Below are positions 2,778 through 6,327 of a DNA stretch of 6,327 nucleotides, piece by piece; within the stretch, counting starts at the first letter, position 1; each line of letters begins with the position of its first letter. The notes under the pieces were generated by a model. It had not been told where the DNA came from, did not search any database, and was given only the letters and a program-made list of their open reading frames with translations. Source of the stretch: a virus; IMG/VR virus record IMGVR_UViG_3300045988_136181, positions 1 through 6,327 of that record. One strand, given 5' to 3'. The translations under genes were made by a program, and so were the position numbers.

Positions 2778-3023
2778 TTAAACCATAGTGAACCAGAAAC
2801 GACTATCTTTCTGCTGAAAGATACCATTAAACTGAATAACCGCATCATTATTATAAGTATCGTACACTGAATCCATAAAAGAAGAAACTTCATCAGTACG
2901 CACTGCATAATGAATAGTATAAACATCACCCAAGACATTAGAAGTTACAATAACCTTAAAATAATCACGCGATTCATTATCAAAGAATTGAGACCGCTCA
3001 GAATCAGAAATAACCTTTTCCAT
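2778..3023 (-). CDS. Hypothetical protein, 81 aa
   Basis: ATG-initiated ORF on the coding strand and the first gene after the long non-coding region. The composition looks like a globular protein (MEKVISDSERSQFFDNESRDYFKVIVTSNVLGDVYTIHYAV...). I recognise no family. Confidence 0.55.
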   Translation of the reverse strand: MEKVISDSERSQFFDNESRDYFKVIVTSNVLGDVYTIHYAVRTDEVSSFMDSVYDTYNNDAVIQFNGIFQQKDSRFWFTMV

Positions 3024-3111
3024 AACCTTAACAATTTAAATTAAACATTAAAAATATCAGAAACATAAAGCAACTGATTTCGAGTGCAATATTACAAAAA
3101 AAATAGATACA

Positions 3112-3139
3112 TTATAACATAAAGGACGTTATGTTAACA
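3112..3139. promoter_or_regulatory. dif-like tyrosine-recombinase core site (11-6-11): TTATAACATAA-AGGACG-TTATGTTAACA; candidate XerC/D-type attP, alternatively an operator or promoter palindrome
   Basis: Perfect 8-bp inverted arms TAACATAA (3115-3122) and TTATGTTA (3129-3136) are separated by a 6-bp spacer. The right arm matches 9 of 11 positions of the XerD arm of E. coli dif (TTATGTTAAAT, from memory). The left arm ends in CATAA, like the XerC arm. Confidence 0.4.
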
Positions 3140-3320
3140 AATATTAGTTGAATTTTACAATGTTTCACGTAAAATGCTATCTATAAAATAGCAAAACGAT
3201 TAAAGTGCATAAATTAGCACCGACATAAAGAAACTGATACGAATACAGTAAAAACGTTCCTCGCAAACGACCCTTATTAAGTCGGTGTCACTTTAACAGT
3301 AGATAAACTAGAGGGAACTG

Positions 3321-3368: not shown

Positions 3369-3383
3369 GACTTTGAGATGATA
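3369..3383 (+). repeat. 15-nt direct repeat GACTTTGAGATGATA, copy 1
   Basis: Exact copy of 3567..3581, 198 nt away. Confidence 0.95.
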
Positions 3384-3402
3384 GCTAATGATAGCAGGCG
3401 AT

Positions 3403-3613
3403 TAGGGGCGTTGCCCCTATAACCTCACTTCCGGTCATCCGGAAGCGGAAGGAGCGGAAACTACGTTTCCTGTCTTATGGGGCGTTGCCCCAAGCCCCAG
3501 TTCCTTTGGCATTGCCCAAAGGAACCGAAAAGCTAGTGTTTTTCATAGTATCAAAGCCTATCGGGAGACTTTGAGATGATAAGCGGTCGGGCTCTACGAG
3601 CCGTTCACGACCG
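3403..3613. other. Array of six perfect GC-rich stem-loops (structured DNA or RNA element)
   Basis: Stems have no mismatches or wobbles. They are 3403-3419 (TAGGGGC GTT GCCCCTA), 3428-3445 (CTTCCGG TCAT CCGGAAG), 3456-3470 (GGAAAC TAC GTTTCC), 3478-3492 (TGGGGC GTT GCCCCA), 3500-3525 (GTTCCTTTGG CATTGC CCAAAGGAAC), and 3584-3613 (outer CGGTCG/CGACCG enclosing GGCTC TAC GAGCC with a 5-nt bulge). Confidence 0.8.
3567..3581 (+). repeat. 15-nt direct repeat GACTTTGAGATGATA, copy 2
   Basis: Exact copy of 3369..3383. Confidence 0.95.
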
Positions 3614-3627
3614 AAGCACAAAAGTAA

Positions 3628-3657
3628 ATAACTAATGATAACTAATGATAACTAATG
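3628..3657 (+). repeat. Tandem repeat, three perfect copies of ATAACTAATG (10-nt period); iteron-like
   Basis: Read directly from ATAACTAATG ATAACTAATG ATAACTAATG. The related ATGATAGC pair at 3378-3385 and 3388-3395 also has a 10-nt period. Confidence 0.9.
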
Positions 3658-3812
3658 AGTGTGCTAAAATCGGGAAAACAGAAGCAGAATGAAATAAAAT
3701 AATAAAAATACGTGCGTACAATCTATATATAAATATATATAAACAATACACACGCATAATAAAATTATAATAGTAAAACGACATACCAAAAATGGATTAT
3801 AAAGTCATTTTA

Positions 3813-4832
3813 CTAATGAAAACCTTTAACCTTTTTAGGAGCACGCATACCTTTGGTAGATTTACCAAAAGCATAAGCACCGGCAGCAGGTAACCAAGAA
3901 CCATCAATACCAAGCCAACGCCAAAGCTTATTAGCAGGACTTTGAGTATCTTCATACTTCTGCTGAGTCCAACGACTAGAATCATTTGTCGCATCAATAG
4001 ATAATTGCTGAGTAGCTTTTCTGAAATCATTATCTATCTTAATACCAGACTCATTAGCATAATTAAGAGCAGCAGACGAAACGTACATACGAGCAGCTGC
4101 ATCAGCCATTCCACGTTGAGCAGCAAATAAAGCAGACTGAGCAATAACATTTGCTAAACCTACTTGTTTTTCGGCAGGAAGCCAAGACAAATTAACCTTA
4201 GAAATACGGTTCTGAGTGTCAGCAAGCGCAGCATTCATCGCATCGAGATAAGCGCGATTAGCAAGAGATTGGTTTTGAGCATTGACCAAATCTACACGAG
4301 AATCTAAAGAATCTTTTGCATATTGATTTTCAAGCTCTTGATAAACATTCCTAAGCTGAAGATTTTTTGTCTTAGCCTGCAAAGTCTGTAAAAGAAACAA
4401 ATTTTGCATACGTTGAGCTTCTGTCATCTGACCTGTATAATCAGCTTCTTCGTCAGCTTTACGAGTCTCGGCGTCACGAACAGTCTTTTGAGCATTAATA
4501 TCCATCTGCTGAGAAATCATCTGAGCAGCAGATGAACCGGCAGAACTGATACCTTGTGCCAAAGTTTCGCCAGAATTAGACATAGATGTAGATGGAACAG
4601 AACCAGAAACAGAACCGGCAGAACCATTCATCATCAAATTAGGATTGAGACCTGCTTCTTCAAAACGCTTACGCTGATTTGCAGCAGTATTATAATCTCT
4701 ATCCATTAAATACATTTTCTCCTGCCAATCACGTTGGGCTTGAGCATTTTTATCCTGCTTCTTAGCACCAAACAAAGAACCAAGAAGACCAGCACCAGCA
4801 GTGATTGCAGCAGCACCAATAGTAGCAGACAT
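3813..4832 (-). CDS. VP2: Minor capsid / DNA pilot protein (Microviridae VP2-like), 339 aa
   Basis: The track ORF starts at a TTG (4856); the first ATG is at 4832 (MSATIGAAAITAGAGLLGSLFGAKKQ...). It has a Gly/Ala-rich hydrophobic N-terminus, an EEAGLNPNLMM motif typical of VP2/H-like pilot proteins as I recall, and a long Gln/Ala-rich predicted helical middle. It sits downstream of the capsid gene. Confidence 0.82.
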   Translation of the reverse strand: MSATIGAAAITAGAGLLGSLFGAKKQDKNAQAQRDWQEKMYLMDRDYNTAANQRKRFEEAGLNPNLMMNGSAGSVSGSVPSTSMSNSGETLAQGISSAGSSAAQMISQQMDINAQKTVRDAETRKADEEADYTGQMTEAQRMQNLFLLQTLQAKTKNLQLRNVYQELENQYAKDSLDSRVDLVNAQNQSLANRAYLDAMNAALADTQNRISKVNLSWLPAEKQVGLANVIAQSALFAAQRGMADAAARMYVSSAALNYANESGIKIDNDFRKATQQLSIDATNDSSRWTQQKYEDTQSPANKLWRWLGIDGSWLPAAGAYAFGKSTKGMRAPKKVKGFH

Positions 4833-5345: not shown

Positions 5346-6327
5346 TTAATTAGAATAAGGAAGACCATAACGGCTAAGGTTACGAGTAACATAAGCCATA
5401 TTAACCATTCCAACATACAATTTATCATCAGAAACAAGATAATTGTTCTGATTAACAAAGATACTGTTACATAAAGACGGTCGACAATTAAAGAGTTCTG
5501 GGGCAATCTGCATAGAAGAAAGATTATGACGGCAAATCTCATCAATCATATCAGAAGGAAGACCTGTAACCCAAGAATTCAGAGTAAAGCAAAAATCACC
5601 ATTATATTTATCGTAATTAGTCTTGTACTCAGAATATCGAGGGGCATAACCGTAGGACTTAATAAAATTTTGGTCATCGACAAAACCTACCCTAACACCA
5701 TCAAAAGAAGGTGCTTGAACCTCAAAAAGATAATTCTGCTGCATACCAATTGAATCCATTTCAGGGATAACAAAATCAGAAGCATCAGTCTTACAAAGAG
5801 AACGGTCAATTCCGATGTGAGCATAATCAAGGACAGGAGTACAACGATAAATGCCCATCACAACACCATAAGTATCGGCAGTAAACTTAATCTTAGAAGA
5901 ACCATTACCGATAGGAGAAGCTTTATAATCAGCTTGACCGTCACCAGAAAGATTTTGATTAACGATAGGATTAATATCAATCATAGAAGAAGAACCACCA
6001 ATAAAATAAGATGTATCATCAGCGTGTTTAGGCTTAACACCAAAATGAGCCTCAATCTGAGACGCAAAATCGATATCATTTGCCAACTGAATCTCCTTGT
6101 ATTTCTGAGCAGCATAAGCCTGACGAAGAGACAAGATAGACAGAGAAAGAGAATCAGCATCTATAATGTGAGAATGCCTAAGAGTATCAGTAGAAACACC
6201 AGAAGTAGAAGCAAGACTACCATAACGAGAACTTGAGGGATCTTTAGTAGTGACAACTGGAACACCAGAAGGAAAAGAATCAGAAGAACCTAAAGAAAAC
6301 CAAGAGTAACCATCTACATTAGTCTGA
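5346..6327 (-). CDS. VP1: Major capsid protein, C-terminal part (309 codons, 6272..5346, including the stop); 6273..6327 duplicates 1..55
   Basis: The track shows only 5346..6134 from an internal TTG. I checked codons 6135..6327 in the same frame and found no stop. The frame is in phase with 1..963 (927 + 963 = 1890 nt). The sequence reads ...LSILSLRQAYAAQKYKEIQ...GGSSSMIDINPIV...YGVVMGIYRCTPVLDY...YAPRYSEYKTNYDK...RYGLPYSN. Confidence 0.95.
   Translation of the reverse strand, partial: QTNVDGYSWFSLGSSDSFPSGVPVVTTKDPSSSRYGSLASTSGVSTDTLRHSHIIDADSLSLSILSLRQAYAAQKYKEIQLANDIDFASQIEAHFGVKPKHADDTSYFIGGSSSMIDINPIVNQNLSGDGQADYKASPIGNGSSKIKFTADTYGVVMGIYRCTPVLDYAHIGIDRSLCKTDASDFVIPEMDSIGMQQNYLFEVQAPSFDGVRVGFVDDQNFIKSYGYAPRYSEYKTNYDKYNGDFCFTLNSWVTGLPSDMIDEICRHNLSSMQIAPELFNCRPSLCNSIFVNQNNYLVSDDKLYVGMVNMAYVTRNLSRYGLPYSN
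6273..6327. repeat. Terminal direct repeat, copy 2 (identical to 1..55)
   Basis: Exact 55-nt identity with the window start. Confidence 0.95.

Follow-up and report, generated by a model that had tools for sequence, protein, structure and literature searches.

A 28-bp dif-like site as a candidate Xer-dependent attP in an integrase-less microvirus of the human gut

How could a small phage that encodes no recombinase enter the chromosome of its host? This question is raised by a 28-bp palindromic element in a viral DNA of 6,327 nucleotides (IMG/VR record IMGVR_UViG_3300045988_136181), the whole of which is called the window here. The initial annotation had taken the element for a candidate attP used by host XerC/XerD and the phage for a potentially temperate one, with a promoter as the caveat. 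Our analysis suggests that the 28-mer is probably the attP of a Bacteroidales-infecting microvirus, imitating the chromosome-dimer-resolution site of the host. Its homology to a working attP is nearly certain, whereas the chances that the window's phage still lysogenises are about evenly balanced. That Xer recombinases are the enzymes acting at the site of the window is something we infer.

The phage genome and its 28-bp site

The window represents one complete Microviridae genome, a circle of 6272 bp followed by a 55-bp overlap (bases 1-55 repeat at 6273-6327), an assignment based on Pfam matches to Phage_F and REP_ORF2-G2P, PHROG pilot families, and the terminal overlap itself. All six genes are carried on the minus strand and fill 5298 of the 6272 nt: a capsid protein running across the origin of the circle (629 aa; Pfam Phage_F, 1.2e-23), a VP3-like protein (5330-4881; 149 aa), a VP2/H-like pilot protein (3813..4832; 339 aa; PHROG pilot families), ORF81 (2778..3023), ORF66 (2474-2674), and a rolling-circle Rep (2471-981; 496 aa; PF23343, phrog_942). 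The pilot gene is the last before a non-coding, gene-free stretch of about 790 nt (3812-3024) that ends at the att site, and ORF81 is the first gene on the attL side, which integration at the site would leave intact. There is no space for a recombinase; an integrase domain was absent from the eight ORFs scanned, and no ORF longer than 190 aa lies outside the six genes. Megablast of the whole window against GenBank phages gave no match, the best capsid identity among those phages being 41%. The long capsid protein (629 aa), a Prevotella-linked att module, and the gut origin are indirect pointers to possible membership in the Alpavirinae. Two human-gut samples contain the identical phage in circular form, at about 6.3 kb (L014/L016 and L015; the samples are ERR1190560 and ERZ27272242), and the 28-mer is identical across these independent assemblies. 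By eye, the N-terminus of ORF66 resembles a lipoprotein signal peptide (...LGLIGTYFGVSAMTSC), and the protein keeps 51-60% identity in clades where capsid identity to the window is only 28-60%; it may be a lysis or exclusion protein.

The candidate attP, TTATAACATAA-AGGACG-TTATGTTAACA, lies at 3112..3139 on the plus strand and is designated as such from its sequence, a chance test, its conservation in the clade, and its positional homology to provirus junctions. It comprises, on the same strand, a XerC-type arm (TTATAACATAA, 3112..3122), a central crossover region (AGGACG, 3123..3128) that reads GGGACG in most members of the clade and in the Prevotella target described below, and a XerD-type arm (TTATGTTAACA, 3129..3139). 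Set against E. coli dif, GGTGCGCATAA-TGTATA-TTATGTTAAAT (PMC3025954), the XerC-type arm shares the terminal CATAA, and the XerD-type arm agrees at 9 of 11 positions, which are the first nine of the E. coli arm. The inverted arms TAACATAA/TTATGTTA form a perfect 8-bp match around the 6-bp spacer; two 11-bp arms, partial dyad symmetry, and a 6-bp centre are all present. The structural claims of the initial annotation (the 11-6-11 geometry, the perfect inverted arms, both resemblances to dif, and the lack of an encoded recombinase) were therefore accurate. The core CATAA-N6-TTATG occurs once in the window against 0.01 expected, with at least one match in 3 of 200 dinucleotide shuffles, and a chance palindrome was rejected on this count.

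Provirus junctions in relatives and the bacterial target

The site was located in every fetched relative via two conserved flanks, which in gene orientation are CACGTGAAACATTGT upstream and GCACTCGAAATCAG downstream. In the window, the sequence leading into the XerC-type arm is ...AAATAGATACA, and the XerD-type arm is followed by AATATTAGTTG. The flank on the XerC-arm side (3034..3111, minus strand) is the leader of ORF81-ORF66-Rep; the flank on the XerD-arm side (3140..3193, plus strand) retains 74-90% nucleotide identity across three lineages, while capsid identity drops to 29%. The latter flank contains a near-palindrome, TTTCACGTAAAA (3163-3174, about 25 nt from the XerD-type arm; a perfect TTTCACGTGAAA in relatives), and after it a small hairpin, GCTAT-N7-ATAGC (3176-3192). 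Both are kept in the three lineages and might constitute an accessory or regulatory site.

In clade B (56-61% capsid identity; L004, L006-L011, L013), the two flanks lie a whole phage genome apart, so these contigs are proviruses. The window's homology to them is interrupted at 3089 and 3129. Read in dif orientation, the two junctions are phage TTTTRTTATAA-CCGGTA-host TTATGGTAAAT and host TTTAATTCTAA-CCGGTA-phage TTATG(GT/TA)AACG; insertion occurred at the homologous position, and the target, reconstructed as TTTAATTCTAA-CCGGTA-TTATGGTAAAT, is another dif-like site. The phage spacer of this clade is also CCGGTA, which indicates that spacers co-vary with the target. Host DNA extends past both junctions and includes the 3' part of a gene for outer-membrane efflux (Pfam OEP). 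A scan of reference genomes returned one locus, L013. Its source MAG carries the label Lachnospiraceae, but an outer-membrane efflux protein is encoded in the flank, and the contig has probably been binned wrongly. A long hairpin in the non-coding region of the same provirus (6424-6513) was considered as a second dif-like site and rejected, its XerD-like half being poor. Beyond attR, clade B loci carry variable cargo, such as a MutH-like endonuclease with a C5 cytosine methylase (L007, 5029-8297) and an AAA_21/AAA_15 ATPase (L013, 7118-8416), and defence-type genes may cluster at this dif-like site. The start of one IMG/VR contig (L009, 1-150) translates to MGSEMCIRDS, the known Nextera adaptor signature, so this contig end is contaminated.

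A scan of viral contigs for CATAA-RGGRCR-TTATNNTAA identified clade C, whose capsids are 29-34% and whose Reps are about 25% identical to those of the window. Its attP, TTCNNACATAA-GGGACG-TTATGTTAACA, occupies the homologous intergenic position and occurs in free circles and, within human-gut contigs reaching 54 kb, in proviruses (the free form in L031 and L037 being TTCTAACATAA-GGGACG-TTATGTTAACA); relative to the window, the XerD arm matches at 11 of 11 positions, the spacer at 5 of 6, and the next 10 flank bases are identical. One contig (L039) is a complete provirus with the junctions host TTTACTTTTAA-GGGACG-phage TTATGTTAACA and phage TTCCAACATAA-GGGACG-host TTATGATAAAT. A further scan of viral contigs, for attR-type hybrids, returned this provirus only. 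A metagenome scan with the pattern TAARGGACRTTATGATAAAT added five complete proviruses, each contained with its two junctions in a single contig (L044, L068, L071, L099, L140), L071 sitting in a contig of 34 kb, as well as ten attL hybrids; attL alone was present in contigs of 32-54 kb (L067, L072, L112). In the attR junctions of L039, L071, and L140, the phage arm is identical to the XerD-type arm of the window at all 11 positions. A fourth lineage (L094, L097, L123) was integrated at TCATTTACTAA-GGGACA-TTATGATAAAT, a target that is empty in L045 and L073.

Hybrid attL and attR sites with junctions within the 28-mer were thus observed for three related lineages. In blastn comparisons with the proviruses that use the GGGACG spacer, window 3120-3193 matched one proviral end and 3022/3036-3137 the other, with breaks at 3120/3137; the two homology blocks overlap at 3120..3137 (plus strand), an interval that includes the duplicated core, TAA-spacer-TTATG (window 3120-3133), present as TAA-GGGACG-TTATG in both attL and attR. 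The free attP, empty attB, attL, and attR of clade C align base for base, and single contigs bear attL together with attR. Each pair of junctions reflects a simple reciprocal exchange in which both duplex sites are complete and have the same spacer. Proviral gene order is attL-ORF81-like-Rep-capsid-VP3-pilot-non-coding-attR, and the XerC-type arm remains joined to the flank towards ORF81 and Rep (attL). The recovery of all four recombination partners in relatives with a positionally homologous site supports the attP reading: proviral junctions fall exactly in the site homologous to the 28-mer, and an empty target exists.

About 60 human-gut contigs, the longest of 209 kb, carry that empty target, TTTACTTTTAA-GGGACG-TTATGATAAAT, in variants of the form TTT[A/T/C]CTTTTAA-GGGAC[G/A]-TTATGATAAAT whose left flank is always one terminator-like hairpin. 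It is intergenic and of 11-6-11 geometry, and 10 of the 11 positions in its XerD-type arm TTATGATAAAT are those of E. coli. On the left, ...GAGAGCCCCTACTAT precedes TTTACTTTTAA, and on the right TTATGATAAAT is followed by AGCGCTTAT or AGTGGTTAT. Across the Prevotella attB loci (L044-L140), the constant left flank is accompanied by two unrelated right flanks, AGCGCTTATAGTAATATC... and AGTGGTTATGAAAAGCATCG...; the second type was also considered as an insertion delimited by another site, a reading rejected because a second dif-like site and a type-1 flank were both missing within 9 kb. The adjoining gene encodes a GH27 alpha-galactosidase that its sources name Prevotella sp. At one locus, the GC skew amounts to about +0.066 on the left side of attB and -0.013 on the right, the sign holding for 12 kb and 9 kb, respectively; at this one locus, the sign change fits a chromosome terminus. 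Published dif predictions for Bacteroidia are poor or unreliable, and TTTACTTTTAA-GGGACG-TTATGATAAAT can be put forward as a candidate dif site of gut Prevotella.

Under the attP reading, the single-stranded genome would be converted into its double-stranded replicative form, and XerC/XerD-type tyrosine recombinases of the host would bind the two 11-bp arms. They would pair the phage site with a dif-like chromosomal site, for which the Prevotella target is the best candidate, and strand exchange would take place at the edges of the 6-bp central region. The product would be a provirus with all genes intact, bounded on one side by host arm, spacer, and phage XerD arm and on the other by phage XerC arm, spacer, and host XerD arm. 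Since both hybrid sites stay complete, excision should be possible. Integration of the window's phage may be rare owing to a one-base mismatch in its spacer.

Between the pilot gene and the att site lies a GC-rich cluster of seven hairpins (3385-3625 on the minus strand, which is the viral strand; -53.2 kcal/mol as ssDNA, z -5.65), conserved in lineages with only 29% capsid identity. An Rfam search of the window, this element included, gave no match at E up to 1. Its ATGAAAAACAC is invariant across 21 sequences, its loop GGGCAATGCC is invariant except in the outlier L040, and its central stem has six covarying pairs; structure-aware alignment across lineages recovered this central hairpin only, the MAFFT alignment being poor elsewhere. 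Many of its loops are triloops of the sort characteristic of stable DNA mini-hairpins (e.g., GCAAC, GCGAAGC). The copies of a 15-nt direct repeat, GACTTTGAGATGATA (3369-3383 and 3568-3582), stand on either side of most of the cluster, beside which lies a short tandem ACTAATGATA repeat (3630-3658). The element may serve as an origin for the complementary strand or act as a non-coding RNA. In the distantly related clade C provirus L099, the interval 5784-6058, which corresponds to window 3391-3624, includes a 130-nt non-coding block of this element whose identity is 93-95% to the window's own clade, clade A, versus 48-59% to other members of clade C. This block is evidence that distant microviruses exchange non-coding modules; it implies that the two clades recombine within a shared host, and no other finding speaks more strongly for infection of Prevotella by the window's phage. 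A bolder and rather doubtful extension is that the att site is one end of a mobile non-coding cassette of about 600 nt (hairpin element, CACGTG palindrome, and attP) that recombines between distant lineages sharing Prevotella, the hairpin element being an undescribed replication-origin or RNA module acting together with Xer-mediated integration.

The window's own clade and competing readings

Clade A comprises genomes with 80-100% capsid identity to the window (L001, L002, L012, L014-L029, L142-L149) and carries the 28-mer intact between both conserved flanks. Their arms follow TTAYRRCATAA and TTATRYTAACA, and the spacer is mostly GGGACG. The two arms vary independently, and dyad symmetry is not kept; in L025, the site is degraded to AAATAA...TTAGAT. 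No provirus of clade A was found; among the 120 best capsid homologues (at least 80% identity), the longest contig measures 14.3 kb. Thirteen long or named contigs were looked up, by exact-protein searches with the window Rep, ORF81, and nine capsid homologues from such contigs, and all yielded circles or head-to-tail concatemers with an intact attP, and the ten attL hybrids at Prevotella attB in the metagenome scan included none from this clade. Integrated copies of the kind that the initial annotation had proposed to look for were found for relatives, with junctions in the homologous site, and not for clade A.

The window's spacer AGGACG agrees with the host GGGACG at five of six positions, the differing base adjoining the XerC-type arm, whereas most clade members agree at all six. 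Prevotella-context attB sites with an AGGACG spacer were absent from the metagenome scan, in which matches to AGGAC[AG] lay in unrelated contexts. The mismatch could lower or redirect integration of the window's phage.

These properties of clade A can also be accommodated by a genuine Xer-type site that no longer serves lysogeny there, either as a decaying relic or in multimer resolution or a carrier state in the manner of cer/psi, the phage being effectively lytic or pseudolysogenic. Occurrence as circles and concatemers, the spacer mismatch of the window, the degraded site of L025, and the many head-to-tail multimer contigs are all consistent with such a loss. However, the multimer contigs may have arisen artificially during amplification or assembly, most clade A members keep exactly the host GGGACG spacer and the whole XerD-type arm, more than multimer resolution by itself would demand, and spacers track bacterial targets across lineages. 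We consider this reading unlikely, and prefer that of an attP.

Among the long clade A contigs, four of 10-14 kb (L018, L019, L021, L022) consist of two different clade A genomes joined head to tail, and L019 has a scaffold gap of N's exactly inside the att site. Such joined genomes could be the outcome of assembly chaining via the conserved intergenic repeat, an amplification artefact, or Xer heterodimers. In L017 (11038-12744), the pilot ORF runs into an FtsX-domain ORF at the end of a tandem-dimer scaffold; the join is probably chimeric, a junction with bacterial DNA being possible.

The promoter caveat of the initial annotation supposes that the palindrome is a promoter or operator of the ORF81-ORF66-Rep operon and that its resemblance to dif is secondary. 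The hexamers are indeed present: on the minus strand, TTGTTA-18-TATAAT (3140..3111) agrees with the consensus at 10 of 12 positions and precedes the ORF81 ATG by 87 nt, and the 28-mer stands just upstream of a conserved candidate -7 box. Sigma-70-like matches are nevertheless not enriched in the region (4 versus 4.6 in shuffles), and promoters of Bacteroidota, the presumed host phylum, follow TAnnTTTG and not the -35/-10 scheme (PMC7366714). The candidate box of this Bacteroidota type, TAATATTG (3094..3087, minus strand), is situated in the leader flank, outside the 28-mer; its homologous position reads TATATTTG in clade B and TATCTTTG in clade C, both perfect TAnnTTTG matches, and the window contains no perfect match within that leader interval. 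Provirus junctions inside the 28-mer and the independent variation of arms whose symmetry is not maintained speak against this explanation as well, which we judge very improbable. Weaker still, to the point of being hardly credible, is a single-stranded hairpin (Rep nick site, origin, or terminator) or a chance palindrome, since the arms can pair as ssDNA (-3.5 kcal/mol, z -2.5) but the stem is weak, relatives lack compensatory changes, independently varying arms favour two protein half-sites over a hairpin, the site is common to lineages whose Reps are only about 25% identical, and a bacterial partner site exists on its own.

Relation to known Xer-dependent elements

These results point to an abundant microvirus lineage of the human gut as probably infecting Prevotella in a temperate or carrier-state manner, and a concrete attP/attB sequence pair is now available for the window's phage and this host. 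The target also supplies a candidate dif for a group of gut bacteria whose class has weak published predictions. The exploitation of dif-like sites extends to at least three or four lineages of microviruses, with spacers tracking hosts, and this tracking could help to assign hosts to orphan gut microviruses.

Comparable strategies are found outside the microviruses. Filamentous phages of Vibrio exploit Xer recombination either through a double-stranded attP (VGJphi type) or through a folded single-stranded attP (CTXphi type); like the window, they combine a dif-like attP with the lack of an integrase, and they integrate at dif. CTXphi needs two inverted sites, whereas the window holds one CATAA-N6-TTATG, so the CTXphi mechanism does not fit; a folded single-stranded attP was rejected for this reason and in view of the simple reciprocal exchanges in relatives. 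The plasmid sites cer and psi are likewise dif-like cores on small circular replicons at which host XerC/XerD act. Their function depends on about 180 bp of accessory sequence, and they do not mediate integration, whereas the relatives of the window clearly integrate.

Integrase-less microviruses that integrate at dif-like sites are already known, namely Alpavirinae proviruses since 2011 and enterogokushoviruses since 2020. The former, BMV1-7 of Bacteroides and Prevotella, are about 6.3 kb long, have no integrase, and are bounded by dif-like direct repeats for which XerC/XerD were proposed (PMC3091885), in keeping with the earlier proposal for Bacteroidetes proviruses that the initial annotation had mentioned. 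By description, the window resembles them in being a microvirus of similar size with no integrase, a dif-like site, and an inferred Bacteroidales host; unlike the integrated BMV1-7, it is a free circle whose own clade was not found integrated. In the enterogokushovirus EC6098, a 28-bp dif-motif in a non-coding region mediates reversible integration next to the bacterial dif, and experiments established a requirement for xerC, for xerD, and for the two arms of the phage motif (PMC7062461). The window's phage belongs to another subfamily, with a presumed host of another phylum; like that of EC6098, its 28-mer lies in a non-coding region, and the junction pattern of its relatives is the same.
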